Shown: one piece after another, positions 1-61,984 of the stretch
Numbering within the stretch: the first letter of the stretch is position 1
Layout: the number at the start of each line of letters is the position of its first letter
Virus record (IMG/VR): IMGVR_UViG_3300036770_008730
DNA: 64,000 nt
Reading direction: 5' to 3' (one strand)
Source of the DNA: a virus
Taxonomy: Duplodnaviria > Caudoviricetes
The notes under the pieces: model-generated
Databases searched by the model: none
What the model was told of the DNA's origin: nothing
Seen by the model: only the letters and a program-made list of their open reading frames with translations
Made by a program: the position numbers and the translations under genes

Positions 1-309
1 TCAGTTTTAACAAATCCTGATACTTATACATACATCGGCACTTGTATTGAAGGTCAATATAAACATGGTAAGAAATCTCATATCACAAAAGATGCTCAAT
101 CTGTTAAAGTATTCGATTTTATGTTGAATAGACTTAAAACAAATAACTTACCTGACTTTTTAGAAGTTTGGCACGAAGGTCATTGTGGTAAATGTGGTCG
201 TAGATTGACTGTTCCAAGTTCTATCGAGAATGGATTGGGACCAGAATGTATAAAAACTCTTAGTCTAGCAGACAAAAGAGATAAATTCTTAGAAGTGATT
301 TTAGCATGA
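1..309 (+). CDS. 5'-truncated Zn-ribbon protein (DUF6011-like)
   Basis: Frame is open from base 1. C-terminal GHCGKCGRRLTVPSSIENGLGPEC motif. Confidence 0.6.
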   Translation, partial: SVLTNPDTYTYIGTCIEGQYKHGKKSHITKDAQSVKVFDFMLNRLKTNNLPDFLEVWHEGHCGKCGRRLTVPSSIENGLGPECIKTLSLADKRDKFLEVILA

Positions 310-755
310 TAAAAGTAATATTATCGTTAATTAATATAATACTTCTTTTTGTAACTCTCTTTCGATTCAAAAGAGATATGAGGTGGCAACTAAGGTCTGG
401 CGCAAATTGTTATAATTGTAAAGAACCAATTGATAATGAAAATTCAAAAAGGTCTTTTTTAGATGAAGATTTTAGATTATGCCAACCCTGTGAAAGAGAA
501 AGAAAAATAAAAATTGTAAAAAATAAGTTTTCTATTGACACTATTTATATTAAAAAATATTTCTTATCGAAAAAGTTTCACAATGTTCAGTGGTATATGA
601 TATTTTTTATGATGGTCCTTTTATCAGTTGATTTGTTTGTCTCTATCAATTATAATTCAAATTTAGTTGGATATATTAGCACTAGCTTCAATACCATTTT
701 TTATATACTTTGGATTTACTCGGTCAATTTAGCCAGAAAACCAAAAGGTAAATAA
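306..755 (+). CDS. Membrane protein with CxxC...CxxC Zn finger
   Basis: N-terminal TM segment, CYNC/CQPC pairs, two C-terminal hydrophobic segments. Confidence 0.6.
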   Translation: MIKVILSLINIILLFVTLFRFKRDMRWQLRSGANCYNCKEPIDNENSKRSFLDEDFRLCQPCERERKIKIVKNKFSIDTIYIKKYFLSKKFHNVQWYMIFFMMVLLSVDLFVSINYNSNLVGYISTSFNTIFYILWIYSVNLARKPKGK

Positions 756-756
756 A

Positions 757-783
757 AAACCCTCTATTTTTAGTAGAGGGTTT
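757..783. terminator. Intrinsic terminator between convergent genes
   Basis: AAACCCTCTA/TAGAGGGTTT inverted repeat with an upstream A-tract (U-tract on the minus strand). Confidence 0.7.
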
Positions 784-833
784 AGGGCCGACTTCTCGGG
801 ATCCACCACTTTGTTTTTTGAAAACAAAGAAAA

Positions 834-1037
834 TTACTTTACCTTTTCTATATATTTTATTATTCCACGAACAAAAAGTTCTTTAATTACCGACTCACAA
901 GTGTAAGTTTTATCAAAATAAAATTCTATGTTATCTCTAATATTTTCTAATCCTGCGTTATATAGTGTGTCAATTGCATAATTTTTAACATCTATATTTC
1001 TTTCAGAAAGAATTTCTTTTATTTTGTGTTTCATCAT
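834..1037 (-). CDS. Hypothetical protein
   Basis: 67-aa ORF directly downstream of uvsX on the same strand. Confidence 0.55.
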   Translation of the reverse strand: MMKHKIKEILSERNIDVKNYAIDTLYNAGLENIRDNIEFYFDKTYTCESVIKELFVRGIIKYIEKVK

Positions 1038-1051
1038 ATAGAAAATTAATT

Positions 1052-2278: not shown

Positions 2279-2392
2279 TGTAATTATTATTTTTTATACT
2301 TTATATATTAAAAATAGACCTCCTGTTTTATAATTGTGAATAATTTTTATCATAAATATCAAATGGTAGAACTAAAATTAATATATACTATT

Positions 2393-4084: not shown

Positions 4085-4753
4085 TTATTCCTTTTTTGGA
4101 TTAATCTTATAATAAAGAATAACTCCTAAAATTAAGATGTTAGTTGCGTAATTTAGTAATAAAGGTAAATCTAATTTATCATATACATATGCTAAGGCAA
4201 ACACTTCACCGAAAGTCCAAAGTAAAATGAATCCCCAAGAAATACCTTCAGAGTTTTTGTCTTTGTATGATTGCCAAGCTTGAGGTAATCCACATATTGC
4301 TAAACATATTGATCCTAACCAACCTAAGATTTCGAATATAGTCATTGATTTAACTTTATCTGTTATGGTGGATGCTGATACTTCTTCTAATTTATGTTCT
4401 GGTATTCTATACCCATATTTATCTTCAACATGGTTTATAAGTTTGTGAGATAGTTCTATTAATTTAGCGGAATCTTTATTTCCTAGATTAGTTTCAATTT
4501 CAAAAAGTATATTAGAAAGTTGTTCGTCATTGCTTTTAGTTTTTCTGATTGTTGAGATTTCTTTTACTTTATCTATTGTTTCTTTTGCATTTAATTTAGT
4601 CTCTGAAGATTGTTCAATTTGATTTGTATTAGATGCAATTGTTTGTTGAGGTTGTGATACTGCAAGAGTTGTTCCTAAGGCAGCTGTGGTTAGTGCTTTT
4701 CTGAGGTCAATTTCTTCATTGATGAAATCGTTATATCTTTTAACCTTTTGCAT
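4085..4753 (-). CDS. PQ-loop/SemiSWEET-like membrane transporter with N-terminal extension
   Basis: C-terminal ILGWLGSICLAICGLPQAWQSYKDKNSEGISW unit with three TM helices; leader MQKVKRYNDFINE. Confidence 0.75.
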   Translation of the reverse strand: MQKVKRYNDFINEEIDLRKALTTAALGTTLAVSQPQQTIASNTNQIEQSSETKLNAKETIDKVKEISTIRKTKSNDEQLSNILFEIETNLGNKDSAKLIELSHKLINHVEDKYGYRIPEHKLEEVSASTITDKVKSMTIFEILGWLGSICLAICGLPQAWQSYKDKNSEGISWGFILLWTFGEVFALAYVYDKLDLPLLLNYATNILILGVILYYKINPKKE

Positions 4754-5535: not shown

Positions 5536-6408
5536 TTAAAGACAAGATAAATATCTTTCACCTCTATCACATAGTATAGTTATGATATTTCCATCCATAT
5601 CTGGATACTTTTCTAAAAGTCTTTCTGATGCTAATATATTGGCTCCTGAACTAATTCCAACAAATAGACCTTGTTCTTTAGCAAGTCTTTTAGCTCTCGC
5701 TTTAGCTTCTTCAGTTGAAATAATTATAATATCATCAACTTCTTTTAAATCTACTAAAAACTTGGATCCATCTCCAATACCTTGTATTCCGTGAAGACCA
5801 GGTAATCCACCAGACATAACAGGTGATTCAGCTGGTTCAACCGCCACTGTCTTCATATTATGGTTATACCACTTTAAAACACGAGAAGTACCCATAAGAG
5901 TACCTCCTGTTCCTGTTCCATCAACAAATGCAGCAATTCTGTTTGTATGTTGGTGTAAAATCTCAACAGCTGTTCCTTTTTCATGCGCTTCAATATTTAA
6001 AGGATTACTAAATTGTTTAGGATTAAAATATCCATTTTCCTCAGCTAATTTGTCTCTAAGTGCAATAGCCTCATCAAATTTACCATCTTCTACTTCAATT
6101 AGTTCAGCACCATATAATCTTAACATTTGTTTACGTTCTTCAGACATATTTCTTGGCATAACTATAATACATTTATATCCTCTTTCTGCTGCTAAGAAAG
6201 CAAAGGCAATTCCAGAGTTTCCAGATGTCGCTTCAATAATTGTATCACCTTTTCCAATAAGATTATTCTTCTCGGCGTTATTAATTATATAGGAAGCCAT
6301 TCTGTCTTTTATTGATCCGCTTGGATTTTGTCCTTCGAACTTTGCAAATATTCTATCTGATATTTTTATTAACGGGGTGTTGCCTACTTGATTGGAGAGT
6401 TGTTTCAT
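5536..6408 (-). CDS. cysK: Cysteine synthase (PLP-dependent, CysK/CysM family)
   Basis: KFEGQNPSGSIKDR (PLP lysine), EATSGNSG, GTGTGGT, QGIG, GISSGAN, DRGERYLS. Confidence 0.93.
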   Translation of the reverse strand: MKQLSNQVGNTPLIKISDRIFAKFEGQNPSGSIKDRMASYIINNAEKNNLIGKGDTIIEATSGNSGIAFAFLAAERGYKCIIVMPRNMSEERKQMLRLYGAELIEVEDGKFDEAIALRDKLAEENGYFNPKQFSNPLNIEAHEKGTAVEILHQHTNRIAAFVDGTGTGGTLMGTSRVLKWYNHNMKTVAVEPAESPVMSGGLPGLHGIQGIGDGSKFLVDLKEVDDIIIISTEEAKARAKRLAKEQGLFVGISSGANILASERLLEKYPDMDGNIITILCDRGERYLSCL

Positions 6409-6492: not shown

Positions 6493-7071
6493 ATGGACAT
6501 TTGGTTTATTTCAGATACGCATTATGGGCACACAAACATTACCGGGTCTGATATTTCTCGTTGGAAAAGTGGATATAGAAACTTCAAAACACTTCATCAA
6601 ATGAATAAGGTTTTGGTAGATGGTATAAACAAATATGTCAAAGAAGATGATGTGCTTTATCATTTAGGTGATTGGAGTTTTGGAGGAGTTGATAACATAA
6701 AATTATTTAGAGATAGTTTGATATGTCAAAATATACACTTGATTAGAGGAAATCATGATGATAACATAGAAGGGTCTCAGATTGATTTATTTTCATCTGT
6801 TCAAGATGTACTAACTTTGAAAATTGGTAAAATGACTATTTTCCTTTCTCACTATTCACATCGTGTGTGGTTAGGTAGTCATAAAGGTGTTATTCATTTA
6901 TATGGACACAGTCATGGTTCAATTCCGGATATTGGAAAGTCAATGGATGTTGGTGTGGATGTTGCTTATAAAATGTTTGGTGAATATCGACCCTTTAATA
7001 TATCAGATATAAATAGAATTATGGAAAAGAGAGAAATACATAAAATTGATAGTCATGTTAGAGAAGAATAA
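6493..7071 (+). CDS. Calcineurin-like metallophosphoesterase
   Basis: SDTHYGH, HLGD, GNHD, HGHSH motifs. Confidence 0.88.
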   Translation: MDIWFISDTHYGHTNITGSDISRWKSGYRNFKTLHQMNKVLVDGINKYVKEDDVLYHLGDWSFGGVDNIKLFRDSLICQNIHLIRGNHDDNIEGSQIDLFSSVQDVLTLKIGKMTIFLSHYSHRVWLGSHKGVIHLYGHSHGSIPDIGKSMDVGVDVAYKMFGEYRPFNISDINRIMEKREIHKIDSHVREE

Positions 7072-7228
7072 TATAGTAAGTAAATTAGGTAAATCTAATT
7101 TGAAAATGTTAATAAATTCAATTTATGGTTCAATTCCAGGTGCTGATAATTTATGGCATAATATGTATAAAAAATATACTAGAACTGAATTTAGAAAACA
7201 AAAAATTAAAAACATTTTAAATGATTGA
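7055..7228 (+). CDS. Small protein with PolB motif-B-like segment and RxxKIxxIL tail
   Basis: KMLINSIYG followed by RKQKIKNIL; ORF overlaps both neighbours. Confidence 0.55.
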   Translation: MLEKNNIVSKLGKSNLKMLINSIYGSIPGADNLWHNMYKKYTRTEFRKQKIKNILND

Positions 7229-7844
7229 TATTTTTGATAAAAATAATATAGACCTAAGTAATATCATTTGTCATAGTGGTGGTGCTGTTGGTGCTGATAC
7301 TTATTGGGAAGAGATTGGTGAAAAGTTTGGAGTAAAGACAAGTGCTTATTCTTATAAGACTAAATATCACACTTCTGTAAATAAAGTTGAGATTAGTAAT
7401 GAAGATTTTATTGAAGGTATAGAGCAAGTTAATAAGGCAAATCTTAATCTTAAACGATATGGTATTCATAAGTTTATTAATTTACTTGCCCGAAATTGGG
7501 CACAGGTAAAATACTCAGAACAGATATTTGCTATTGGAACATTTTTAAAACCCGGTGAAAAAGATTCAAAGGGCTATGTTAATAAAGGAACTATTGATGT
7601 TGTTTCTGGTGGGACTGGATATGCTGTAATGATGGGTATTAATAATGAAAAAGAAGTATTTCTTTTTGACCAGGTTAGAGATTCTTGGTATAGATGGTCT
7701 TATACTTCAAATTCTTTTGTGGTATTGAAAAATTGTCCAAAAATTACTAAACAGAATTTTGCTGGAATTGGCACTAGAGAAATAAAACAAAATGGTATAG
7801 AACAGATAGAAAAGGTTTACGGACTTACTTTTAACAATGAGTGA
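7221..7844 (+). CDS. SLOG/YspA-like Rossmannoid protein
   Basis: HSGGAVGAD, GGTGYAV and FAGIGTR motifs. Confidence 0.55.
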   Translation: MIDIFDKNNIDLSNIICHSGGAVGADTYWEEIGEKFGVKTSAYSYKTKYHTSVNKVEISNEDFIEGIEQVNKANLNLKRYGIHKFINLLARNWAQVKYSEQIFAIGTFLKPGEKDSKGYVNKGTIDVVSGGTGYAVMMGINNEKEVFLFDQVRDSWYRWSYTSNSFVVLKNCPKITKQNFAGIGTREIKQNGIEQIEKVYGLTFNNE

Positions 7845-8118
7845 TTATTTTATAAAATATAAAAATTTAGCAATTTATGCTGAGGAGTCTCGCAAATTAG
7901 TGAGAAGAAATTACAAATGTCAAGTAGTTGCCACAGAGGCTGATACTTTATTTGATAAATATAAAACTAAGAATCCATATGCTCAATGTCGTAAATTAAC
8001 TATTGAAAGTGTTGAGAATTTGCTTCCGGTAAATCTAAAATTAGGCTTACTTGAACTGCCTGAAGTTCAAGCTTTAATCAGAGAAGATAAAATAAATAAG
8101 ATTATAGAAAATGATTAA
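7837..8118 (+). CDS. Hypothetical protein (RxxKIxxII tail)
   Basis: Overlapping operon ORF ending REDKINKII. Confidence 0.55.
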   Translation: MSDYFIKYKNLAIYAEESRKLVRRNYKCQVVATEADTLFDKYKTKNPYAQCRKLTIESVENLLPVNLKLGLLELPEVQALIREDKINKIIEND

Positions 8119-8590
8119 TATAAAAAAATGGTTTAGTTATGACCCCTTTGAGTGGAAAGTAAAAGTTTCAGCAGGTGTTATAATTATTTTAAGGAATGAA
8201 AAGATACTACTTTGTCATCCAACTGGTCATCCATGGAATGATAGTTATTCTTTTCCAAAGGGTGGAGTTGATGATGGTGAGTCGAATATTGATGCAGCAA
8301 TAAGAGAATTAAAAGAGGAGACTTCTTTAGTTATTGATGAGTCTCAAATTGATAATATAAATAGACCAATAATCGTAAATTATAGAAATAAAAAAGGTCG
8401 TAAATATAAAAAGGTTATTTTATATACGGTGAGAATTTCTTCGATATCAGAGGTCGGACTTGACAGAGATATTATAGAAAGAGAAAGATTACAACTTGAT
8501 GAAGTTGATTGGTGTGGATTTCTAACTAAACAAGATGCTCATCCAAAGATATTTCATCGATTTGCTCACTTACTTGATTTAATAAAATGA
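8111..8590 (+). CDS. Nudix hydrolase
   Basis: Nudix box GGVDDGESNIDAAIRELKEETS. Confidence 0.9.
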   Translation: MINIKKWFSYDPFEWKVKVSAGVIIILRNEKILLCHPTGHPWNDSYSFPKGGVDDGESNIDAAIRELKEETSLVIDESQIDNINRPIIVNYRNKKGRKYKKVILYTVRISSISEVGLDRDIIERERLQLDEVDWCGFLTKQDAHPKIFHRFAHLLDLIK

Positions 8591-8919
8591 AAAATGAATT
8601 AGATTTATCAAATCCTATATTTGTAATCTATGTAAATACACAGATTGCAACAGAACCTTCTAAATACTTAAATGAGGTTAAGAGTATGTTTGATATTTAT
8701 AATAATGTGACATTTTGGATAGTTTCTTCTGATGAAAATAGAATTGAGTGTGTTTGGGATGCTAAAGAGGGAGATAAAATTGAAGAACAAAAAAGACTAT
8801 TAAATGAGATAAATGCGAAAGTTAAATTATTTTCCGAGTCTAAAAATATCGAAGAGTTCAAAATGAACTTTAGAAACTGGACAATAGATGAATTAGTGTA
8901 TGGCGATAAAGAAGAATAA
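8587..8919 (+). CDS. Hypothetical protein
   Basis: Operon-coupled ORF. Confidence 0.55.
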   Translation: MKNELDLSNPIFVIYVNTQIATEPSKYLNEVKSMFDIYNNVTFWIVSSDENRIECVWDAKEGDKIEEQKRLLNEINAKVKLFSESKNIEEFKMNFRNWTIDELVYGDKEE

Positions 8920-9265
8920 AATAGAATTATTAGATATTCAGTTTTTGAAAACTGAAATGGAAAATTACTATAATCATATAGAATCTCTATATGATGATTT
9001 CTATTATTATGACCTCTGTGATTACTATTGTGAATGTGATGATTGTATGTCAACTTACACTTATTTATCAACACAGAAATCAAATTTAATTTATCGAGTT
9101 GGTAGAAAGCAAATGCGTTTTGTAGGTGAACCAATACTTGGTCAAATGATTGATATGAAATCTTTTTATCCAAAGGATGTTATTAGACAACTTAGAATAG
9201 ATTATTTACTTGGAATAAAAAATGAATTTACTAAACCAACGATAGGGGATATTTTTAATAAATAG
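8900..9265 (+). CDS. Hypothetical protein, Cys/Tyr/Asp-rich patch
   Basis: Operon-coupled ORF; CDYYCECDDC; RQLRIDYLL. Confidence 0.55.
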   Translation: MAIKKNKIELLDIQFLKTEMENYYNHIESLYDDFYYYDLCDYYCECDDCMSTYTYLSTQKSNLIYRVGRKQMRFVGEPILGQMIDMKSFYPKDVIRQLRIDYLLGIKNEFTKPTIGDIFNK

Positions 9266-44504: not shown

Positions 44505-44505
44505 C

Positions 44506-44706
44506 ATGGCTTGTCCAAAATGCGATTCTTTAAATGTGAAGCGAAGATTTTACGCGCCTGTTTCAAAATATGGTCATTTACCTACACCGCCTGTTGATTT
44601 TTGTGATGATTGTGGATTTAAATCACAAGAATCATTTAGTTCTATAAACTTCAGACATCAAAGAGATTATAAATTAGAACAAATATTACAAAATGGGGTT
44701 CAATAA
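44506..44706 (+). CDS. Small Zn-ribbon protein (RDYKLEQIL tail)
   Basis: CPKC...CDDC; start moved to the ATG at 44506. Confidence 0.55.
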   Translation: MACPKCDSLNVKRRFYAPVSKYGHLPTPPVDFCDDCGFKSQESFSSINFRHQRDYKLEQILQNGVQ

Positions 44707-45608: not shown

Positions 45609-48600
45609 TCCATTAAATCTATTACACTAGGACCGGAGATATCTTCTATTCCAATTCCACCACCAGAAGATGAAGGTGCAGAGAATCCTATTCCAGCTCC
45701 GATTCCACTTACAGCAACATTAGATGCATTAACAGAGAAACTATCTAATCCGATTGAAACATTATCTAAAAATTGAAAATTAGCATTTGAGTAGTCTATA
45801 AATGGTGCAATTCCTTGATATGGTATTTCAATTCCAAAATTGATATTATTAGTAGTAAAGTATTGAAAGAAAGGTATCATATCTACTTCATAATATTTCA
45901 AATTATCAATTAAAATCGATGCGGTAAGCGCACCATACCAACCAGAACCCCTGAAGTTCATAGAGAGATTAGTTTTATTGAAAAAATACTCTATCTTTTT
46001 TGAAACTGGTGTTAGTATGTGATTTACATTTTGATATACTGGAAAGAAAGACGCATTTACTGTTGTTGAAAATGTGCCTATAGCCGAACCATAATATATA
46101 TCTCTTGTTACTACATTTAAATTATCAAAGTGAAGAATTGGTTGTGATAATGTCTCCTCCTTATATAACGTTGTAATTTTAGATATTGTAGAATCATTAG
46201 ACTCATAGTAAGGTGTTTGTGCACTCCATCTAGCTAAATTAAATTCAACCATTGTATATCTAGACTTTGATACTTTTTCAGATACTCTAAAATTTGTTAT
46301 TTCCGATGGTTCTGAAATATTTAATACACCGCCTGATGAAATTGCATCTATTTGCATCTCACTACCCACAAGTAAATCTTCTCTTACATTTGTCCAAGAA
46401 TATGAAAACCCCGATCTAGAGATGTTTTTTGCTTTTGTCTCAATACTTCTTGAAAATACAATGGAGTTCAAACCACCAGATGAATAGGTCCAACCTAAAT
46501 TCAAAAAATCTGTTGCGTCTACATTTGTTGGATCAAAATAATTTTCAAAATTCGAAGCTTCACCAATATAGTCATTGAAAATTTTATACTTTGTTCCAAG
46601 ACTATAAGATAGTTCTAAGTTATTATAACTATTTCTGAAATAAGATGTACTTGAAAGCACATCATCTGTAGGATATCCATACAGATTATTCTGTGAGTAT
46701 TCTTTCAATGAAATGTTGTTTCTAATTGTATTTGGTCTTCCTATATTTACGGCAGAGTATGTATAATAGTTTACATCTAGCCACGAATTGTATAAAAACA
46801 CCGCATCAGAATCTAAATAATCTACTGATGATAGTTTTGATGTGTTGTTACTTTTAAAGGTGAAATTTTGAACTAAACCAGTTGAAATTCCAGTATAAAT
46901 CGAACCACTCTCACTCTGTGTAGGTTCTGTACCATAATCTTTATCCGTTATAATTTGATACTCATTTGTTACAGTAACAACTGATGCTGTTCCATCATAA
47001 GATGAATTTATGCCTTTATTATCTTTATCTATATAAATCAGGTCATTTGTATAGAGTTTATGTGGTTGTGAGAAAGAAAGACCTAATTTATTACCTTTAG
47101 TAAAATATGTATTTGAAAAAGTTACAGAATAAAGTTGGCTAGAAAAATGACCACCATCAAATGTCCCATCGATCCAACTTGAATCAAACATTTCGGTTAT
47201 TAGTGGATAACCTTTGAACAGACCGGAGTTCCATATTCCAGTATAATATCCATTTAGGAAAACGCCCGATAACCAAACATTTTTTGTAATTTTAATTCTA
47301 TGAAATGGAGAATCTTTCTCAATTCTCTTCAATGGAAAGTTATTTATTAACTCGACCACGAAGGAATTTGAGTTTTTATTTATTATTGTGAAATAACCTT
47401 TTAATAATTTCCTATCTTCGTTGAAGTCAATTGCAACTATGTTTCCTAAAGATACCTTATCACCAATATTGAATTTTTCAATTGTTAATGGTGGTCCGAT
47501 TATCTGAAATCTCCAAATTTTACCTCTATCCAGGCTAAAATATTGACCAATATCATATAATTCGTAGACCACCTCATCATATCTCCAACCGCTATTCCAT
47601 ACACCATTTTCCCAAATACCGGCCATGAATTTTCCATTTCCAATTTTTGAAAAAATCTGTTGAACATCTAATGATTGTGTTGCATTATATGTATTTCCGG
47701 TACCAGTATAAGCTGAAAAAGTTGCACCTGTTAATCCAATTGGCGTTAATGATGTTGGATTCAAGTATAAATTACTATTAGTTGTTAGATACCTTCTATT
47801 GTTACCAGACCAATAACCACCTTCTATGTTAATATTTGATAATGCTTGAATAGTAGATGTGTCTGTAGTTCTCGCTTTTATTATCAAGTATTGTTTTCCA
47901 GTAAGTCCAAAGTATGCACTAAATGTAGATGATCCACTCATTCCACTTTGTGTATAACTAGCAAGTAGTTCAGCAGTATCGGGTATAAATTGAGGCGAAT
48001 TTAGAATGTAATAGTCATTACTCGGTTTCTCTTGAGAAAGATATATGTCTATTCCATCATTGACGGAACCAGATGCCTTTGTGTAAGTGAATGATAAGTT
48101 GAATTTACCATAGTCAATATATTTTACTAAATAATTCAATGATGCTGATCCTATTACTACTCTTGCCTTTACGAAACCACCATATAGATTTGCTTCAACA
48201 ATTTGAGCTGGGAAAATTGTTCCAGCCACATCATCATACCAGATATATGAGTTTGTATCTGGATAATAACACCATCCTCTTCCATCAGTTGATGCTGAGA
48301 ATGATATTGCGGTAGATTGAGTTCCACTATTACCGTCTCTCCACCATGCAAAACCTTGAATATCAAAATCTATTTCATTTATTCTTGTTTCGTATAAAGC
48401 TTCTGAATTTCCACCCAATCCAAATGCATTATTAGCCTTGTAAATTACATAGTCGTTTGATGTTATATTTGTGCTTGGATTTGAATAAAAATATAGGAAA
48501 CCATTTCCTGGTGATGGTGGTTCCATTCCAGCAACAAAACTATTTCTATCAACATTTGAATAATCAATGCTATCACCCCAGACTGTATTTGCTGAAAATG

Positions 48601-48865
48601 ATGCGGAAGAGTTGAAGAAATTACCAACGTAAGTTGTATATTGATATGTTTTTTTACTATTGAATGTTGTCGCTGTAGGATTCCTATAAATTAATTTTGG
48701 TAAATTTCCAGGAAATGGATATGATATATTTACTCCTAAACCAGTTCCGGTCAATGTCCAATTAGGAATACTTGAGTCAAAGTAGCTAGTTGCCCAATAG
48801 TATCCACTACTTGGTAATCCAAATGATATTACTGCTGACATTGGAGGCGCACTAGGAAATCCCAT
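45605..48865 (-). CDS. Large putative virion protein with G-x-W repeats
   Basis: 1086 aa, S/T/G/N-rich; GIWENGVWNSGW, GIWNSGLF, WIDGTFDGG. Confidence 0.55.
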   Translation of the reverse strand: MGFPSAPPMSAVISFGLPSSGYYWATSYFDSSIPNWTLTGTGLGVNISYPFPGNLPKLIYRNPTATTFNSKKTYQYTTYVGNFFNSSASFSANTVWGDSIDYSNVDRNSFVAGMEPPSPGNGFLYFYSNPSTNITSNDYVIYKANNAFGLGGNSEALYETRINEIDFDIQGFAWWRDGNSGTQSTAISFSASTDGRGWCYYPDTNSYIWYDDVAGTIFPAQIVEANLYGGFVKARVVIGSASLNYLVKYIDYGKFNLSFTYTKASGSVNDGIDIYLSQEKPSNDYYILNSPQFIPDTAELLASYTQSGMSGSSTFSAYFGLTGKQYLIIKARTTDTSTIQALSNINIEGGYWSGNNRRYLTTNSNLYLNPTSLTPIGLTGATFSAYTGTGNTYNATQSLDVQQIFSKIGNGKFMAGIWENGVWNSGWRYDEVVYELYDIGQYFSLDRGKIWRFQIIGPPLTIEKFNIGDKVSLGNIVAIDFNEDRKLLKGYFTIINKNSNSFVVELINNFPLKRIEKDSPFHRIKITKNVWLSGVFLNGYYTGIWNSGLFKGYPLITEMFDSSWIDGTFDGGHFSSQLYSVTFSNTYFTKGNKLGLSFSQPHKLYTNDLIYIDKDNKGINSSYDGTASVVTVTNEYQIITDKDYGTEPTQSESGSIYTGISTGLVQNFTFKSNNTSKLSSVDYLDSDAVFLYNSWLDVNYYTYSAVNIGRPNTIRNNISLKEYSQNNLYGYPTDDVLSSTSYFRNSYNNLELSYSLGTKYKIFNDYIGEASNFENYFDPTNVDATDFLNLGWTYSSGGLNSIVFSRSIETKAKNISRSGFSYSWTNVREDLLVGSEMQIDAISSGGVLNISEPSEITNFRVSEKVSKSRYTMVEFNLARWSAQTPYYESNDSTISKITTLYKEETLSQPILHFDNLNVVTRDIYYGSAIGTFSTTVNASFFPVYQNVNHILTPVSKKIEYFFNKTNLSMNFRGSGWYGALTASILIDNLKYYEVDMIPFFQYFTTNNINFGIEIPYQGIAPFIDYSNANFQFLDNVSIGLDSFSVNASNVAVSGIGAGIGFSAPSSSGGGIGIEDISGPSVIDLMD

Positions 48866-48899: not shown

Positions 48900-51800
48900 T
48901 CACGGGGTAAATATTACTGCCATTGGAGGCCCAGGAATAGGTGGTGGAAATGGTGAAGGAGGCGGTGGAGGAGGCGGTGTTGACACCGGAGCATCTATAC
49001 TATCATCTATAAATGGTGTCGATGCGGTAGTAAATATCTCAAATCCTTCACTCTGATATTCAAAAATATTCCAAATATGACAAGATGAAGTTCCTGACCA
49101 ACTCATACCTCTAAATAAAATTTGCTTTGTAAAGTCATCATTTATGTTTCCACCCAATTCAAATGCTGATCCATACCAGTTTCCATTTCTCCATAATCCA
49201 TCTTCCCAAAAAATGTTAAAAGCATTCATATAATTTGAAACTCCAGTTTTCCAAATCATTCCATAACCAGTTCCTATTATAAAGTTTCCTTTATTCCACT
49301 TTGATATAAAAAAGTCACCATTTTCAAAATTCCCATCTTCCCAAATACAACTATCATCAATATTAAAAGATGCTGTAGGTGATATTTTAACTATTAAATT
49401 ATCAATTGTAAGACTACCTGTTTGTCCGAAAGTTGTTACATATAATGATAAATTCCCACCCAACAGATTCACCTCAACTTTATTAGTTCCTATGTTACCT
49501 GATGTTACTGGATTTAATAATGTAGAAGTTGTTCCACCATTACCTACATAGACCGCAAGATTATTATTTATACTTGAAAATGTTACAACATCAAATGTTA
49601 TTTCATACTTACCAGCCGCTAAAGAAGTTGATGAATTTGTTAAATACAGAGCTGGAGCATTTGACTCCGCGATGAAATAAGCTTGATTTGATACCAAACT
49701 AAATGTAGAGTATTTGCCTGAAGAATTACCACTACCAGCAACCCAACCACCTAATGATGATGTGAACGAACCATTTGAAATCAAATCATTCTGAGTAGAA
49801 TAATCCCAAACATACATTGGACTTACATTTCTTCTTACATATGGATTAAATGAACTCGCATAAAATTTACCCTTATCAAAAGTACCATTCAACCAAACTA
49901 TATTATTGGTTTCACCGCTTTGATGACTAAATGTGCCGTTAAGCCATAACGCATTTGAAATTTTAGTTGGTGTATAAGTTCTTCTTAAATTTGAAACTTC
50001 ATTTCTTTCTAACTTAGAATATAGTTTTTTGTCTTTAATTAATTTGTCTTTCTGGTCTGTAAAATAACCATCTCTCCATAGACCATAGAAACTATTTCTA
50101 AATGAGTCTACGAAACTATTTGCGGCTGATGCTGATGATCCACCAACACTTGAAACTTTTGAACTTCCTTGAAACTCACCTTTTTCAAAAATACCATTAT
50201 TCCAAACTCTGCCTTTGAAAATTCCATTGTTGAACTCTCCATAGTACCAAGTAGAGTTAGTCAATCCTTCTGCATTTCCAAATTCACCTCCGTTAAATGT
50301 TCCATTTTCCCATCCGTAGATACTTGCTGAGGCTGAATCGCTTTGTGTCCATCCATAACCAGAAGTAAATTTACCACCATTAAATGTTCCTTTTTTCCAT
50401 TTAGCTAATGAAACAAATTGACCACCATTAAACTCACCATTATACCAAGTTGCTGTATTTGAAGCAGTAGTTTGTTGATAGTTGGTTCCAAATAAACCAT
50501 CATTAAATATTCCGTTTTGCCAAATTATATTATTTGTTGTTGATTCTTGTAGACTGGTATCGGATGCATAGAAGCTAGCATTTTCAACAATAACATTACT
50601 TACAGTTGCATTATAAACAACTGTATCTTGTGTGTCTATACCAGAATCTCCAAAAATACCACCATTTATTAGTCCATTGTACCACTTTGAGTAGTAAAAT
50701 TTACCACTTTCAAAAGTTCCATTCTCCCAATCACTTTTATAAAAATCAGACGCTCTATTTCGACTACCTAATCTAAATATTCCATTTTGCCAAGAATATC
50801 TATCATTTGAAATTGTTGCAGTTGTTATACCATCTTTGTAATAAGAAAGTGTATTTTCTGTGTAAAAATTTTCCTCATTTTGAGTAGGCTCACCATTAAA
50901 TGTTCTAGATTCATAAAAAGTACCACTATTAAATAATCCATCAACCCATCTTGATTCTTTTATTACACCATTTGAAAATGTCATGTTATTTATTACTGAC
51001 TTCTGTATAATACCATTTGTCCAAGTATTATCACCTCCAACAAAATTTGAATAAAGATAAGTAGCATTTGATAAAAAATTTCCATTACTTTTAAATAGAC
51101 CATCAGCAATAACTAAGTTTCTAATTCTTGAAAGATTGATATAATCCTTATCATCAACATTATATTCATCATTCTCAATCAAAGAATTAGTAATATAAGT
51201 TCTTCTAAGAATTCCTGATTTGATTTTAGTTTTATTAAATCTAGTTTTATAAATGTATCCGTATCTGTTACTTGCTCCAGGTGTATTAAAAAATCCAAAT
51301 GGTAACAACGTATTAAACACACTTGTCGTTCCAGTAACTATAAGTTCCTGTAGTCCTAATCCACCTGCAAAATCATTCGATATAACCTTATAATTAGAAG
51401 GAAGTAGTGTTACTGATGATGTTACGGAAGTTATTTGTGCTATCCCATCAAAAGATCCATCTTGTATCGTTACCAAATCACCAATTTGATATCCTATACC
51501 TGGTTGGTTTATGTATATAGAATCAATCGTTCCTAATGGAGCATCTATATTCACAATTAATCCTGTTCCTGCCCCACCAGATACTGCAACACTAGAAGTA
51601 CTAGTGTAGATAGTTCCTGGATTTGAAACTGTTATACCAGTCACATAATTTTCAACTGTATAATAAACCGAATTTAGATATACTATATTTCCAATTTCTA
51701 ATGATCTATCATCAGAATTTGGATTAGAATAATCATAGGTTGTTGTTACACTAAGAATTGAACTTGAAGTGGACGAAATCGACATATTATAATAACCACC

Positions 51801-54116
51801 ACTCAGTGTAGTAGTTGGAAATAAAGAAGTCGGAATTGTTATATTTAAGTCATTATTGTAACTTATGTTATTACCATTTATCCAATTTGATGTTTCAATC
51901 AAACCACTCTCTAATTCCGAATCAACTATGTAAGCATTTGAAATGTCTACTATTTCTCCTAAGTAATTTGACATTGTAGGAGAAGTGACTGATGACGTAG
52001 CTAAATCTCTGTTGAAATTTATGTGAGATAATGCATAACTATTAGTATCTATTGTTTTAATTATTAAATCAACTGAATATCCAGATTTCTCGTTTTCTGA
52101 AGTAATTGCGGTTGAATAACTTCCAAAAGCTCCAACACTGGTCAATTTATACGAATTTTCCAATGGTGTTGAAAGGTAAGCTGTATATTCAATGCCTCTT
52201 TTACAGAAACTATATGTTGCTGGGTTTATTTCATCTATATTTTCAGTCCATGATGATAATGTGAACTTTGTGTCAAAGAAATTAAGAACTTCTTTTGATT
52301 GATTGTTAATTATTAGACCTTTTATATAGAAATAGTCTTTATTTTTTAACCTTTCGTAGTTGCTTCTAGAAATATAGAACTTATAGATTTTATTTGACGC
52401 ACCATTTGCATAAGGATTAAACTCGGTTGCGCTATACTCATCATAGTCTGTTATTTTTATTATATTATCACTTATTACACTTGAATCTTTAATAAACGAT
52501 TCGGTCAGTTTGGAGTTAACAATTTTACTTTTAACAAATCTTGTGTTATAAGCTCTTGAATTACTTACTTCTGAGTTTCCAATTAAAACATCATTCAAAT
52601 AACAACCTTCAAAAAAACCTTTGTTTGTTTTGTTAGTAAAGGTTGTCAATGTTGAAGTCAAATAGTTTTCAACTACTGAGTAGGTCGCTGATTGTGTGCC
52701 TAAAGAAGAATTTATTATACTACCATTGTTGATTATTGAACTTTGTAGTATTGAATCATATATAAAATTATATCCCTTTCCATCATTATTTGTTTGACTT
52801 GCTTTTTGAAAAGGAATACCATTTTCATCAAAACTAGAGTAAAAACTTTCCTTTGATGTGTATTTTGAATTTATTAGTCCTTTTGTCCAAAAGGAATTAA
52901 GTAATGTTCCAGTTTGCCACTTAGAATCACCACCATCCCAAATAATCATTTTATCTTGTCTACCAAAAAGTCCTGTATTCCACTTACCTTTGAAATTCCC
53001 ATCTCTAAAATTCGCCTTAGTAATAAATGGTTTATGATAAGTTACATCGACCATCCATTCTGATTGAGTTGGTCCAATATTCCATTTATAAATATATCCT
53101 TCTTGAAACGTCTTATTATTGTAATTAAAACTACCATTTATAATTTTTAATCTATTGTTGTTACTATATGTTGGCGATAATGCAATTGAAAATGAACCTA
53201 TTATAAATGAACTTGTAATGTCTATCCAATTAGCTGGATTAGTTGAGCTGTCTCTTACATAGAATCCAGCTGATGTGATTGCGTTACAATCACCCCAACC
53301 AGTAGTTAATGGTGAGTATAAGTCATCTACATAAATTATGCTATTTTGATATTGTTCAAATTTATTACTGACAGAGGCACCTCTAGTTGTAATTTGTCTA
53401 TTTATTTGTAGTAACTCTTGACGATCCCTGATATAGTGAACTTTTATAAAATCATCAACTTCATCATCATTATATGGTAAAACTCCTGTATAATTAATGT
53501 CTAAAACTATTTTACATCTGTCTATATCTAGTATTTTATAACCATCTCTTCCTTTTTTATATTTATCGGCCTTTATAAGAAGATCATTATCATAATTTCC
53601 ATTTATTATAAATACTCTATCTCCTTTTTTTAATCCTGAGTCAACATCAGTATAGAAAAGTGTTTTATTGAATCCACTTAAATCAAATGGTTCTACCCAA
53701 TTAAGAATTCTTGGACTAAAAGATTTATCGTAGATATCTACTTCTATATTTTCTCTATTAAAAGAGACAAGCTTTACAAGACCTTTTGCTTTTTTTATTT
53801 CTTGTTTTTGAACCAATACTGGTTTAAGAGAAACCAATCCCCTAACTGTTTGAGGAGTAACAGCTTTTGGATTATTAAAAATAGATTGTATATTATCCGG
53901 TATTATTGCACCATTATTAAATACTGGTTTAGAATCTAATTCCTGAATAAGTTGATTATATTGAGTCAGTGTAATTTCACCATTTTTTAGCTTAATCGAA
54001 AGCTGACTCTTTTTTAGGTTGATTTTTTCTGTATCAAGCCTCTCATCGGAATTCATAATAGTTGGAATACTTGGTAGGTCAAAACCTAATAGTGAACTTG
54101 CTGAGAATGTTGCCAT
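48900..54116 (-). CDS. Very large putative virion protein with Trp/Phe pentapeptide repeats and Pro-rich tail
   Basis: 1738 aa; many W/F-x-N-G-x units; Ig-like 'PGTIY...GYQIGD' module; C-terminal poly-Pro. Confidence 0.55.
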   Translation of the reverse strand: MATFSASSLLGFDLPSIPTIMNSDERLDTEKINLKKSQLSIKLKNGEITLTQYNQLIQELDSKPVFNNGAIIPDNIQSIFNNPKAVTPQTVRGLVSLKPVLVQKQEIKKAKGLVKLVSFNRENIEVDIYDKSFSPRILNWVEPFDLSGFNKTLFYTDVDSGLKKGDRVFIINGNYDNDLLIKADKYKKGRDGYKILDIDRCKIVLDINYTGVLPYNDDEVDDFIKVHYIRDRQELLQINRQITTRGASVSNKFEQYQNSIIYVDDLYSPLTTGWGDCNAITSAGFYVRDSSTNPANWIDITSSFIIGSFSIALSPTYSNNNRLKIINGSFNYNNKTFQEGYIYKWNIGPTQSEWMVDVTYHKPFITKANFRDGNFKGKWNTGLFGRQDKMIIWDGGDSKWQTGTLLNSFWTKGLINSKYTSKESFYSSFDENGIPFQKASQTNNDGKGYNFIYDSILQSSIINNGSIINSSLGTQSATYSVVENYLTSTLTTFTNKTNKGFFEGCYLNDVLIGNSEVSNSRAYNTRFVKSKIVNSKLTESFIKDSSVISDNIIKITDYDEYSATEFNPYANGASNKIYKFYISRSNYERLKNKDYFYIKGLIINNQSKEVLNFFDTKFTLSSWTENIDEINPATYSFCKRGIEYTAYLSTPLENSYKLTSVGAFGSYSTAITSENEKSGYSVDLIIKTIDTNSYALSHINFNRDLATSSVTSPTMSNYLGEIVDISNAYIVDSELESGLIETSNWINGNNISYNNDLNITIPTSLFPTTTLSGGYYNMSISSTSSSILSVTTTYDYSNPNSDDRSLEIGNIVYLNSVYYTVENYVTGITVSNPGTIYTSTSSVAVSGGAGTGLIVNIDAPLGTIDSIYINQPGIGYQIGDLVTIQDGSFDGIAQITSVTSSVTLLPSNYKVISNDFAGGLGLQELIVTGTTSVFNTLLPFGFFNTPGASNRYGYIYKTRFNKTKIKSGILRRTYITNSLIENDEYNVDDKDYINLSRIRNLVIADGLFKSNGNFLSNATYLYSNFVGGDNTWTNGIIQKSVINNMTFSNGVIKESRWVDGLFNSGTFYESRTFNGEPTQNEENFYTENTLSYYKDGITTATISNDRYSWQNGIFRLGSRNRASDFYKSDWENGTFESGKFYYSKWYNGLINGGIFGDSGIDTQDTVVYNATVSNVIVENASFYASDTSLQESTTNNIIWQNGIFNDGLFGTNYQQTTASNTATWYNGEFNGGQFVSLAKWKKGTFNGGKFTSGYGWTQSDSASASIYGWENGTFNGGEFGNAEGLTNSTWYYGEFNNGIFKGRVWNNGIFEKGEFQGSSKVSSVGGSSASAANSFVDSFRNSFYGLWRDGYFTDQKDKLIKDKKLYSKLERNEVSNLRRTYTPTKISNALWLNGTFSHQSGETNNIVWLNGTFDKGKFYASSFNPYVRRNVSPMYVWDYSTQNDLISNGSFTSSLGGWVAGSGNSSGKYSTFSLVSNQAYFIAESNAPALYLTNSSTSLAAGKYEITFDVVTFSSINNNLAVYVGNGGTTSTLLNPVTSGNIGTNKVEVNLLGGNLSLYVTTFGQTGSLTIDNLIVKISPTASFNIDDSCIWEDGNFENGDFFISKWNKGNFIIGTGYGMIWKTGVSNYMNAFNIFWEDGLWRNGNWYGSAFELGGNINDDFTKQILFRGMSWSGTSSCHIWNIFEYQSEGFEIFTTASTPFIDDSIDAPVSTPPPPPPPSPFPPPIPGPPMAVIFTP

Positions 54117-54356
54117 TTACAAAAACTGTCTTTTACCTATATATAAATAATTGAGGACTTTCTATGTAGACTAAGAATTTTTTATTAATTTTAACCTGTA
54201 GTATTTTTATGAAAGAAATTAAATATCAAAGATTTATTGACAGACTTAGTACCTCTTTAAGAAAATCTAAAAAAAATAGATTAAGAGTTTTCCAAAGAAA
54301 AATTAAAATTATTAGCATTTTCAATTCTTAATATATAAGAAAACTTATTTATTTTT

Positions 54357-59092: not shown

Positions 59093-59123
59093 AAAAATAT
59101 AAAAGGTTTTAAGTATATATTAT

Positions 59124-60089
59124 TTAATACTTTCTATTTTTTAGATGTTTTAGGAAATCAAAAGAATCATCAAATTTATTTTTCAACAAATCTTCGATAG
59201 ATTCTACTTTTGTTAATTCTGATAAAAATCTTTCTTTTTCAAAGATATGCTCAGCAGCATCTTTTGCAAATTGACTTAAATAGATATTACATTTAATTTT
59301 ATATTCTTCAAAAAAATGTTTCAAAATAGCCGATGTTCTAAGACCCACTTGGTCATTATCAGAAAATATATTTATAACCGATGGCCTTTTTTTAAGTAAT
59401 TTATAAAGTTGTATTCCTGTCCACATTGCAGAAGAACAACTAACTGTTTTTTTATTCATCTTTATCATGGCCATCATATCAAACAAACCTTCTGTCATCC
59501 ATATTTCATCTCCCTCACTGATGTTATTCAATCCCCAGACCGGAATATCAGGACATGCTAAGCTATATTTAAGTGATTTTGATGAGTTGATTTTTCTAAC
59601 CGAGCAGTTTATTAACAGCCCATCTTCAAAAAGAGGTATGATTATACCCCCACTTTCAATACCATCATCTAAAACTTTATTAAGAATTGGATGACAAGTA
59701 GCTCCTATTATTTCTAAGTGTTTTTTATCTTTTATAGATGATAGACCAAGTATTGACCATTTTAAGATTGTTTCATCTCCAATTCCCCTATTAGTGAGAA
59801 ATTCATATTCTTTCTCATTAAAGTTTCCAACATTATCCCTTATTAACTTGGTAAGAGATTGTAAGTCTTGTTTTGTAACAATGATGTCTTTTACTTTTAA
59901 GTTGAGTTCTTTCTTTTTAACTTCAACCATTCTTTTATCATTATTGAAGTTATTTCTACACTTTTCTAAAATTGATTCAACATCATTAAGTATGTTTGGA
60001 TTTATTGAATTATCAATAAAGTTAGCTACGACTCCTTTTACAGATCTGTTATTGTAAAGAATAAAAGCTAATTCTTCATTAGTCCACAT
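59124..60089 (-). CDS. DnaG-like Toprim primase-domain protein
   Basis: YEFLTNRGI, IIIPL...R, MTEGLFD, FSDNDQVG. Confidence 0.75.
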   Translation of the reverse strand: MWTNEELAFILYNNRSVKGVVANFIDNSINPNILNDVESILEKCRNNFNNDKRMVEVKKKELNLKVKDIIVTKQDLQSLTKLIRDNVGNFNEKEYEFLTNRGIGDETILKWSILGLSSIKDKKHLEIIGATCHPILNKVLDDGIESGGIIIPLFEDGLLINCSVRKINSSKSLKYSLACPDIPVWGLNNISEGDEIWMTEGLFDMMAMIKMNKKTVSCSSAMWTGIQLYKLLKKRPSVINIFSDNDQVGLRTSAILKHFFEEYKIKCNIYLSQFAKDAAEHIFEKERFLSELTKVESIEDLLKNKFDDSFDFLKHLKNRKY

Positions 60090-60628
60090 TAGTTATATGC
60101 TTGAAGCTTTATTATATAGTTATAACCCAATACCTCTTCAAATCCATATTCTTTTATTGTTGAGATATATTCGTTTTCAATTATATTCACTATATCCTCA
60201 AAGGTTAGATTTTCTTCTTCAAAATTTTCTACTTCTTCTGTCTCTATATCATATACCGATAACATAGCATCATAATTTGTATCATTAACTCTGATAGATA
60301 AAATTATCATATAATTTTCATCTGCTAGAATGAAAGCGTGATATTTATGTTCCTCATCATATCTAACCATGATATTAAAATTCTCAGTTTCAATAATACC
60401 ATTTGGTTCTTTATCCGCCTGAATAAATACTGAAATAAATGGATATTTATAATTGACTATTTTCAAAAGAAGAGTTTCAATTGTTTTTTTATCTGGTGTG
60501 TAATCAACCTTATTATATTTACTGTAATTTTTACTTAAATAGTCAATTTCAGCTGATGGATCTGTTGAAAAAACTAAGTCTTTGATTTCTTCACTATCAA
60601 ACAACTCATTAAACTTTTTTATCTTCAT
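60089..60628 (-). CDS. Hypothetical protein with MKIKKFNE leader
   Basis: Leader motif; AATATATA box about 24 nt upstream. Confidence 0.6.
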   Translation of the reverse strand: MKIKKFNELFDSEEIKDLVFSTDPSAEIDYLSKNYSKYNKVDYTPDKKTIETLLLKIVNYKYPFISVFIQADKEPNGIIETENFNIMVRYDEEHKYHAFILADENYMIILSIRVNDTNYDAMLSVYDIETEEVENFEEENLTFEDIVNIIENEYISTIKEYGFEEVLGYNYIIKLQAYN

Positions 60629-60678
60629 ACTTGTTTTTTTTATTTATTATGTATATATTTGTATTCTAAAATAGAATT

Positions 60679-61263
60679 ATGTTAAAAGTAGCACTAACAG
60701 GTAATCGTTTTTCTGGTAAGAATAGAGTTTCTAAATTATTTAATTCTATTAGTATTCCAGTTTTTGACGCTGATACTTGTATAAAATACTTAATTTGTCA
60801 CAATTTCGAATTTTCTACTAAAGTCAAACAAAAAATGGTAAACTTCTTTAATGATGATAATAAAATCGACCCAGGAAGAGTTAATACCTCAGCACTTGAC
60901 CATTGTATAGATATAATTGAGCCCGAAATATTCAGACTTTATGAAAAATATTGTGAAAAAAATAGTCATTCAGTTTATGTAATTTTCAAATCTTCAATTA
61001 TCTTTGAAAGAGGTTGGAATAAAAAGTTTGACTATACGATAAATGTATTTGCTCCGGTTCACTATAGGATTGAAAGATGTCATAAAATAGATAAAACTGA
61101 TTACGAAGATATCTATGAATTTGCAAATGGTGAAATCTTAGATGAAAAAAAGAATATGAGTTCTGATTTTGTTGTACATAGCTATGATGGTGCTCCTGAT
61201 ATAATAAAATCTATAAACGAAATTGATACAAAAATTATTGACCACTATTTAAATAAAAATTAA
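60679..61263 (+). CDS. coaE: Dephospho-CoA kinase
   Basis: VALTGNRFSGK, PVFDAD, RI.R, SDFVV; TATATTTG promoter at 60654-60661. Confidence 0.75.
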   Translation: MLKVALTGNRFSGKNRVSKLFNSISIPVFDADTCIKYLICHNFEFSTKVKQKMVNFFNDDNKIDPGRVNTSALDHCIDIIEPEIFRLYEKYCEKNSHSVYVIFKSSIIFERGWNKKFDYTINVFAPVHYRIERCHKIDKTDYEDIYEFANGEILDEKKNMSSDFVVHSYDGAPDIIKSINEIDTKIIDHYLNKN

Positions 61264-61264
61264 T

Positions 61265-61984
61265 ATGATTGTAGTTTGTAAAAAAGCAACAAAAAAACTT
61301 GTAAAGGGATTAAGATATGAAGTTCAAAATCTTTGGAATGATGGAGGAAATCAACGATGGTTAGAATCAAAGATTGAAATAAAAGGAATTGGTCGTTATT
61401 CGGTTGATAACTTTACTGATACAGATGGTAAATCTTTGCCTAAAATTAATTTTTTAACTCCAAGACCTGTCTACAGAACATTAACTTTTGAAGAATTAAA
61501 AGAGGGTGATATCTTAGTTTGCACATGTGATTCTTACAAAACTTTAGCAAAAGACTCTATGTATAGAATTAGTAAACTCATAACAAAATCAACAGATTAT
61601 AGAGGTTATAATGGAACTATTCATCAAAGGGTTGATAAGAATGTTCAATTTGAAGGGATAAAAAGAGCTATCAAATTCTCTAGTTGGAAATTTAGAAAAC
61701 TTAGTTCAGAGGAATCTCGTGAAATACAATTATCTTCTATTTTGAATGGTGAGAAGCCACCAGTTATTATTACATCATCTGCAAGAAAAATTGATTTAGT
61801 TACAAACAAAGATCGAGTTTTAATGAACTTACTAGCTAAATCAATTTTGGACTCAAATAGACATCATCTTTCGATATTAGAATGGGCTATTCAAAAAGTA
61901 GGTAATAACTATTCAATAACAGAAGAAGATTATAAATCTTTACTCAATCTTTCACTGAAGGAAGTTTTGGAAAAACTGAAATAA
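61265..61984 (+). CDS. Hypothetical protein
   Basis: 239-aa ORF coupled to coaE; contains REIQLSSIL. Confidence 0.6.
   Translation: MIVVCKKATKKLVKGLRYEVQNLWNDGGNQRWLESKIEIKGIGRYSVDNFTDTDGKSLPKINFLTPRPVYRTLTFEELKEGDILVCTCDSYKTLAKDSMYRISKLITKSTDYRGYNGTIHQRVDKNVQFEGIKRAIKFSSWKFRKLSSEESREIQLSSILNGEKPPVIITSSARKIDLVTNKDRVLMNLLAKSILDSNRHHLSILEWAIQKVGNNYSITEEDYKSLLNLSLKEVLEKLK

Follow-up and report, generated by a model that had tools for sequence, protein, structure and literature searches.

A stretch of 64,000 nucleotides from a virus of the Caudoviricetes (IMG/VR record IMGVR_UViG_3300036770_008730; hereafter, the window) encodes a set of small proteins that carry, mostly close to their C-termini, a motif of about ten residues with an arginine, a lysine three positions on and a hydrophobic face. 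The window has a G+C content of 29% and is densely coding on both strands. A preliminary description had listed ten strings of the type R-x-x-K-(I/L)-x-x-(I/L)-(I/L) in its open reading frames (ORFs). All ten are in frame at the genes named and nine fit the pattern; the tenth, RERKIKIV (495-518, +, ORF 306-755), is one spacer residue short, lies internally in a protein predicted to be membrane-like and was discarded. Those nine are the sole matches to the loose pattern R..[KRQT][IL]..[IL][ILV] in the 70 window ORFs (20,636 amino acids, aa). Two C-terminal near-matches beyond the earlier list, in ORF 1-309 and, doubtfully, in a NUDIX gene, complete the set:

277-303 (+), RDKFLEVIL: ORF 1-309, DUF6011-type, cut by the window edge; one residue before the C-terminus (RDKFLEVILA*)
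7193-7219 (+), RKQKIKNIL: ORF 7046-7228, 57-60 aa, with a PolB motif-B-like KMLINSIYG at 7103-7129; ND* after the motif
8080-8106 (+), REDKINKII: ORF 7837-8118, a 93-aa ORFan; END* after the motif
8558-8584 (+), RFAHLLDLI: doubtful; C-terminus of the NUDIX gene 8111-8590
8872-8898 (+), RNWTIDELV: 110-aa protein 8587-8919; six residues before the C-terminus
9185-9211 (+), RQLRIDYLL: 121-aa protein 8900-9265; internal, followed by G-I and a second short helix
38770-38796 (+), RDGKIESIV: 166-aa ORF 38491-38991, in the inserted helix ENRDGKIESIVEG; basic tail after it
39062-39088 (+), RKKKIAKIL: 60-aa protein 38984-39166, with a tail-sheath N-arm (GKFVSPGVYVKEVDIS) as residues 1-17; then IITSTPKG..NFPQIW
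41198-41224 (+), RDKKLSKIL: 71-aa protein 41021-41236; DES* after the motif
44662-44688 (+), RDYKLEQIL: 66-aa zinc-ribbon protein 44506-44706; five residues before the C-terminus
61718-61744 (+), REIQLSSIL: internal helix in the 239-aa ORF 61265-61984; candidate instance

Frequency, position and conservation in the window

Within-protein shuffles (1000 runs) were taken as the null. The strict form of the pattern occurs six times against 0.40 expected (0.17 in proteins of at most 250 aa) and the loose form nine times against 0.82, and not one of the 1000 shuffles reached six or nine, respectively. The reversed window proteins gave two strict-pattern and no loose-pattern matches. The tendency of the proteins to end just after the motif, noted in the preliminary description, also holds, since five of the nine loose matches are located 2-6 residues from the C-terminus (binomial p = 4e-5).

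The motif is retained by orthologues, 35-75% identical, in related huge-phage contigs, and this applies to the families of ORFs 1-309, 7046, 8587, 8900, 38491, 38984, 41021, 44506 and 61265. Nine orthologues of ORF 1-309 terminate in KRDKFL.LIL[AGS]*, and in this family the Pfam domain DUF6011 stops before the motif tail. In the 8587 family, whose homologues in a large protein database are all close and unnamed, the orthologues have IRDWRI[ND]ELV, and those of 8900 retain LRQKRINHILG (LRQKRINHILGI...kPTigDIL). The 41021 family comprises 136 clusters in a large library; R60 and K63 are invariant across 13 orthologues, and the orthologues end in R[DSN]EKI[ED]QILS*. Multi-repeat sequences of 856 and 1140 aa that also matched the profile of this family are translated repeats and were rejected as relatives. 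Orthologues and paralogues of the 44506 protein end in R.xKI[NE]QIL. Conservation is of another kind in the 61265 family (88 homologues), where the helix is kept with an invariant R followed by E/D/N at position 1, L at 4, [ILV] at 7 and L at 8, but with S/Q/N in place of the motif K. RFAHLLDLI of the NUDIX gene is only moderately conserved and has no K at position 4, and no orthologue of ORF 7837-8118 was found when one was sought.

The motif in related huge phages

A contig of 598,435 bp is given in the record of the window protein 61265-61984, and IMG/VR contigs syntenic with the window reach 508 kb. The closest near-complete relative (G001, 385 kb) was fetched whole, and a second near-complete relative (G002) was also used. 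The major capsid protein of G001 is 72% and 70% identical to those of LR745206 (634 kb) and LR756502 (642 kb), both entered as 'uncultured phage', 53% identical to that of a 735-kb phage (LR756501), about 30% to those of the Prevotella Lak phages and 26% to that of Tenacibaculum phage PTm1; its relatives occur in at least 247 IMG/VR contigs, and the 80 listed are all at least 70% identical. Because of these identities, the window phage is placed by sequence in a clade of huge phages (400-600 kb) whose distant cultured relatives infect Bacteroidota, and the hosts of the clade are probably Bacteroidota as well. In an annotated phage collection no close relative was found for the 38-62 kb part of the window, and the sole close relative of its UvsX gene was the unannotated LR745206.

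When the window was analyzed together with 60 related loci, the pattern was found within 8 residues of the C-terminus in 138 of 1126 ORFs, against 2 after reversal and about 4 after shuffling, and the distance from motif to end peaked at 1-4 residues. Eight loci from more distant phages contained no ORF with a C-terminal motif. In G001, 46 of 467 gene calls (10%; 58-289 aa) terminate in R-[DNE]-x-K-[IL]-x-[KQ]-[IL]-[LFI], compared with 0-4 in shuffled and 2 in reversed proteins. Once the 46 proteins are aligned on the Arg, information is present solely at positions 0-9 and there is none upstream; the consensus is R-[DNE]-x-K-[IL]-[KNDE]-[KQ]-[IL]-[LFI]-[NKD], with R and K at positions 0 and 3 invariant. 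Position 1, which lay outside the search pattern, is D, N or E in 39 of the 46 (p = 2e-20), and positions 5, 6 and 9 are biased as well (p = 1e-10 to 1e-15). This bias at polar positions is specific to the C-terminal instances, internal matches to the pattern being near background.

The distribution follows the clade. LR745206 carries the motif on 6 of 68 genes in 50 kb, whereas there are none among 47 genes in 50 kb of LR756501 and none among 132 genes in 100 kb of PTm1, which has the same base composition (30% G+C). The relatives also contain motif families absent from the window, many of which terminate in RDxKLK[ED]LGI* (R-D-x-K-L-K-E-L-G-I* in several). Chance and composition are ruled out by the shuffles, the reversed proteins, the position bias and the PTm1 control. 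The motif is non-random, C-terminal, clade-specific and kept in orthologues, and it is confined to one huge-phage clade, with a capsid protein about 70% identical to those of LR745206 and LR756502. A search of the literature yielded no description of the motif or of small proteins made of hallmark fragments.

A constraint on the protein and not on the DNA

In the five C-terminal cases of the window the ATG of the next gene lies 2-5 nt past the motif and overlaps the tail, and in G001 the next gene overlaps or adjoins 74% of the motif genes compared with 51% of the other small genes. Such an arrangement would suit a signal at the nucleotide level, for instance a re-initiation or regulatory site for the following gene, that is merely read as a peptide. 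Against it, codons at every motif position track the usage of the G001 genome, with I/L exchange and synonymous variation: the motif Arg is AGA in 42 of 46 cases against 86% genome-wide, Ile is encoded by ATA and ATT, and Leu by TTA, CTA, CTT and TTG. Moreover, in G001 the gap exceeds 15 nt in 10 of the 38 motif genes with a same-strand downstream gene and 8 motif genes have none downstream, while the conserved internal copies of the 8900, 38491 and 38984 families are far from any start codon. Since codon choice mirrors genome usage, the motif is not a nucleotide signal and the constraint acts on the protein; the nucleotide-level explanation is hardly credible.

The carriers are unrelated and the motif is separable from them

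The statement of the preliminary description that the proteins are otherwise unrelated is borne out, because the 46 G001 carriers fall into 43 BLAST clusters (E < 1e-3), the predicted folds differ and a third family is a zinc ribbon. A single expanded paralogous family was rejected given the 43 clusters, the lack of upstream information and the different folds. Searches with Pfam and PHROGs left almost all motif proteins without a match. In a Pfam scan of 20 proteins (19 larger G001 carriers and the DUF6011 orthologue of ORF 1-309), 19 shared no Pfam domain, and the sole domain among the 19 carriers was a glycosyltransferase, in a protein whose pattern match was judged to be due to chance.

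For the 41021 family, AlphaFold2 predicted a compact alpha domain (residues 1-58, pLDDT > 90) followed by the motif helix (residues 59-70), where pLDDT is 67 and falls to 53. The model indicates that the helix is exposed, detached and, because of this low and falling confidence, has no fixed position. A family of 108 aa is predicted to form a beta domain and, at its C-terminus, a long helix modelled with high confidence. Neither model retrieved anything significant from the PDB with Foldseek. The zinc ribbon of the 44506 protein is recognized by its CxxC pairs, its matches being weak. The tail is absent or degenerate, without the Arg/Lys motif, in some distant homologues of the 41021 family, and in the 38491 family the motif is either an internal insert or C-terminal. 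Hence, the motif is separable from the preceding domain and is attached to different folds. The tag, for docking or localization, that had been proposed earlier is in keeping with these results, in that the shared element is a short motif at the protein level, mostly at the extreme C-terminus, and the exposed low-confidence helix of one model fits it.

The long and confidently predicted helix of the 108-aa family could also speak for the absence of any common partner, the motif being a convergent or recombination-spread structural ending such as a capped amphipathic or self-association helix, and a composition rich in K, I, L, N and D would ease the evolution of such helices. Stability alone hardly explains an invariant Arg/Lys pair and biased positions 1, 5, 6 and 9 over 43 unrelated clusters; PTm1, with equal base composition, has no such endings, and the helix of the 41021 model is low in confidence and detached. 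This explanation is consequently judged unlikely.

The extreme C-terminal position bears on a further possibility, namely a degradation or turnover signal by which a host or phage AAA+ protease would give early small proteins a timed, short life. The basic-plus-hydrophobic composition of the motif can be likened to that of the MuA-type ClpX signal RRKKAI*, and the carriers are mostly small ORFans in tight arrays, as early phage genes are. Conserved internal copies, those of the 8900, 38491 and 38984 families, would not act as C-terminal degrons, and the residues past the motif are frequently acidic and differ in number from one protein to the next, so that a degron appears quite improbable.

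Fragments of hallmark proteins joined to the motif

Three of the motif proteins had been described as joined to an isolated signature of a core phage protein (capsid, sheath and PolB), and in the three cases significant and position-correct similarity to the parent was found. ORF 38491 is paralogous to the first ~125 residues of the major capsid protein; it matches phrog_138 at profile positions 3-76 (E = 5e-4) and the G001 capsid protein in blastp (E = 2e-4). The blocks K.W..[IV]L..MG[VM]TG, LLPIAMKVAAQTIGLDLVSVKP and PSGxLFYLDYKYG are common to the family and the capsid protein, and the inserted helix reads ENRD.KI[ED].I.E; one homologue is without the insert and ends in RKRKINNIF.... In ORF 38984 the segment aligning with residues 4-24 of the real sheath protein (1314 aa) gives E = 2.3e-4 by hhalign and E = 2e-4 by blastp. 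Over seven orthologues P7, G8, D15, R27, K30 and I31 are invariant, the N-arm [SR]PG[VI][YHF]..E.D is kept and the motif is R.[IK]KI..I[LF]G; by eye, the end of the protein resembles the next block of the sheath.

ORF 7046 aligns with residues 555-580 of T4 gp43 (hhalign, E = 0.003). Twelve syntenic orthologues have invariant K17, N21, Y24 and G25, which correspond to the K, N, Y and G of motif B, together with R47 and K50, their motif being R[KR].KIK.IF. It is not a piece of a locally split PolB gene, as it is flanked by a phosphoesterase gene and a DprA-like gene. Separately, the PolB gene itself was observed to encode only 566 aa in G001 (L068:232-1932) and 508 aa in G002 (L067:406-1932), spanning the exonuclease, motif A and the first fingers helix before it stops. 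The C-terminal half with motifs B and C was not found in these two genomes by a YGDTD pattern, a motif-B pattern, the C-terminal half of T4 gp43, phmmer or regular expressions, and in G001 K-x3-N-S-x-Y-G occurs only in the 62-aa orthologue of window ORF 7046.

The set of core fragments extends, in the relatives, to the terminase (TerL) Walker A and the spine helix of the capsid protein. ORFs of 66-86 aa contain the spine helix (Pfam Gp23, 34.9 and 29.1 bits against a cut-off of 24.4) and end in RKKSINKIF, where the real capsid protein has SKQIVAKIF at the aligned place. In a family of 44-86 aa, conserved in at least 10 genomes, K[SAG]RQ[TSV]GKS and its flanking residues correspond to the Walker A region of the real terminase (residues 96-123, E = 0.002), and the ending is RKETIKRLFNI*. 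Taken singly, the matches to PolB and TerL are weak, and they are short; weaker cases still are copies of capsid residues 54-71 and of part of a 712-aa gene next to the capsid gene. A subclass of 55-90 aa has a more basic tail, R-K-E-[KT]-I-K-R-[IL]-F, which it joins to PolB motif B, TerL Walker A, the capsid spine helix or the capsid N-terminus; ORFs 38491 and 38984 are separate carriers.

Two side observations concern such small ORFs. A protein of 411-412 aa without family match (L063:1725-2963, L066:1743-2978, L064:53-622), ending in ...VTVHDSII...LYEEFGLI, has several copies per genome, two of them directly after small ORFs with the capsid spine-helix fragment. In addition, the N-terminal half (GTNSVVGGYNNIVIGNSNTITG) of a 94-aa C-tagged protein (L058:7220-7504) is like the head repeats of adhesins or tail fibres, and the protein may, from its sequence, be a further case of fragment plus tag.

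A homing endonuclease near 38984 could have left decaying fragments behind. A gene of this type is present:

39199-39531 (+): T5orf172/MUG113 (GIY-YIG-like) gene, stand-alone, 110 aa

It occupies the same position in 18 relatives with 58-68% identity, a constancy that makes an active mobile endonuclease improbable. The order of the genes 38491, 38984, T5orf172, 40747, 41021, 41226, SbcC is conserved in relatives, which argues against fresh homing-endonuclease debris; since the order is kept in many relatives and the signature residues are invariant, simple decay was discarded.

The preliminary description took the fragments to mislead host immune sensors as decoys or to inhibit competing phages in a dominant-negative manner, with the helix as their docking tag. 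The capsid, sheath, PolB and TerL fragments joined to the motif are indeed real and conserved, the copied segments are the most conserved parts of the hallmark proteins, and the 38491 family retains a stretch that aligns with the capsid N-arm region, which in T4 holds the Gol peptide sensed by the Lit protease. On the other side, most of the ~46 tagged proteins per genome have no similarity to core proteins, and known sensors such as Avs recognize whole folds and not segments of 30 residues. Furthermore, the PolB motif-B helix is not an interaction surface, and a trigger-like decoy could equally set off the defence. As an account of the motif, decoys or inhibitors are improbable; for the subclass of hallmark fragments the decoy function is possible.

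Other features of the window

Beside the motif genes the window contains genes of T4 type, which comprise collagen-like and other virion and tail-fibre genes and the following two:

1052-2278: UvsX-like recombinase
41753-43498: SbcC-like gene

Auxiliary genes encode a PLP-dependent enzyme (PALP family, E = 6e-70; 5536-6408, -), a PQ-loop membrane protein (4085-4753, -) and a protein with a SHOCT C-terminal domain (15765-16724, -). Two giant ORFs, 48900-54116 (-, 1738 aa) and 45605-48865 (-, 1086 aa), have no PHROG match, and the first ends in a proline-rich tail (PPPPSPFPPPIPGPP...).

The sequence TTAATATATA (usually TTTAATATATA) occurs at 17 sites of the window against 1.7 expected, for instance at 2302-2311 (-), 28532-28541 (+), 31273-31282 (+), 37144-37153 (+) and 54328-54337 (+), and lies 15-35 nt upstream of many gene starts. 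As it precedes the starts of DNA-metabolism and structural genes alike, it is probably the main promoter element of the phage. An inverted repeat, GAAAACTTTTC...GAAAAGTTTT, followed by a run of T (38446-38490) immediately precedes ORF 38491 and has the appearance of an intrinsic terminator behind the gene 38114-38440.

A probable modular docking helix

The motif is probably a modular short linear motif that acts at the protein level, an amphipathic docking helix of about ten residues carried by unrelated small proteins. This reading is favoured because the element is short, terminal, exposed in at least one fold, endowed with an invariant Arg/Lys pair and a hydrophobic face, and modular; in many unrelated small proteins it stands 0-8 residues, mostly 1-4, before the C-terminus. 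The helix would serve as a common docking peptide for one shared partner; a groove of this partner would accept the invariant Arg, the Lys three positions further and the hydrophobic face of positions 5, 8 and 9. Diverse small effector or mimic domains would in this way be tethered or routed to one hub, of the phage or of the host. Unrelated small proteins have gained the helix, lost it or come to carry it at a different place.

Some points weigh against a docking helix. Convergent evolution could give rise to short amphipathic helices that contain Arg and Lys. The helix of the 108-aa family may, in its model, pack on its own domain, which makes a purely structural role possible in some families. 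The gene calls, moreover, are crude, resting on longest-ORF heuristics, and orthologous loci are not independent samples, so that the independent count is about 30-45 families and not 138 ORFs.

A wider proposal, that about 40-50 small proteins per genome form a 'tagged microprotein' system routed by one helix to a single hub, in which the pieces derived from hallmark proteins act as mimics (decoys, inhibitors of rivals or brakes on the phage's own assembly or replication), is regarded as doubtful. If the tagged copies of terminase, polymerase, capsid and sheath did function as mimics, they would represent a new class of phage regulators or counter-defence proteins, with a bearing on the evasion of bacterial immunity that senses hallmark phage proteins. 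The interest of the docking helix itself is more general. Nearly all knowledge of huge phages comes from metagenomes, and the function of most of their genes has yet to be assigned; a tag of ten residues on about 10% of the proteome would provide a handle on dozens of genes at once, and a single pull-down with the peptide could identify the hub and with it a destination or fate common to all carriers.

Comparison with known systems

Terminal peptides that route unrelated proteins are known from several systems. The capsid targeting sequence (CTS) of the T4 internal proteins IPI-III is, like the motif, a terminal routing peptide of about ten residues common to unrelated phage proteins. It differs in being N-terminal and cleaved at [LI]-x-E by the prohead protease, whereas the motif is C-terminal, helical and of different sequence, and no enriched Glu was found just before or after the motif in the 46 G001 proteins. 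G001 was also observed to possess a second tag (L083-L102), an N-terminal MK[YH][LI]KxYK[IL]FES on about 28 proteins clustered at 300-340 kb (genes starting, for example, at 310047, 310752, 311195, 311706 and 312089), which in its sequence resembles the T4 CTS with an I-F-E protease site.

The scaffolding protein gp8 of phage P22 provides a closer parallel. Its C-terminus, checked in the sequence, is ...YRKLKAKLKGIR*, an amphipathic helix at the very C-terminus in which Arg and Lys stand at i and i+3, as in the motif, and its final K-G-I-R* recalls the L-G-I* of some relatives. R293 and K296 of gp8 bind acidic residues of the coat N-arm (PMC9965877). In P22, the helix belongs to a helix-turn-helix of about 30 residues in a single protein, whose gene is beside the coat gene; here, a single conserved helix occurs on about 46 unrelated proteins scattered over the genome.

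The similarity to gp8 leads to a further explanation of the motif, a signal for incorporation into the virion or prohead that would load small proteins into the giant capsid in the manner of scaffolding or encapsulin cargo. The endings R-D-x-K-L-K-E-L-G-I* of several relatives and the presence of the motif on capsid-derived fragments are compatible with it. The idea is weakened because the CTS-like N-terminal tag sits on a different set of proteins, only one protein having both tags; besides, the tagged genes are found in ORFan arrays and beside genes of DNA metabolism and not in head modules, and the element is a single helix and not a helix-turn-helix. Capsid loading is therefore considered distinctly improbable. 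Were it correct, it would link the packaging of phage internal proteins to cargo loading of the encapsulin and scaffolding types.

The cargo-loading peptides of encapsulins and the encapsulation peptides of microcompartments are likewise short terminal peptides that route unrelated cargo inside a protein shell, and those of microcompartments are amphipathic helices with an [IL]-x-x-[IL]-[IL] face. The encapsulin peptide is extended, with a G-S-L or L-x-I-G-S-L core, whereas the motif lacks G-S-L and is predicted to be helical. In the phages that carry the motif, the capsid is the sole known shell gene. The h-x-x-h-h spacing is shared with the PIP-box (Q-x-x-[LIM]-x-x-[FY]-[FY]) and with the tails that bind the T4 gp45 clamp ([ST]-L-D-F-L-[FY]; the tail of T4 gp43 is ...ASLDFLFG), but the motif has no Gln, and an aromatic residue is present only in the minority with F at position 8.

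As for the fragments, a parallel exists in T4, whose small proteins Srd and Srh resemble segments of host sigma factors; in both cases a small phage protein is similar to part of a larger protein. Srd and Srh, however, have host proteins as models and bear no common tag, whereas the models of the fragments described here are the hallmark proteins of the phage itself.

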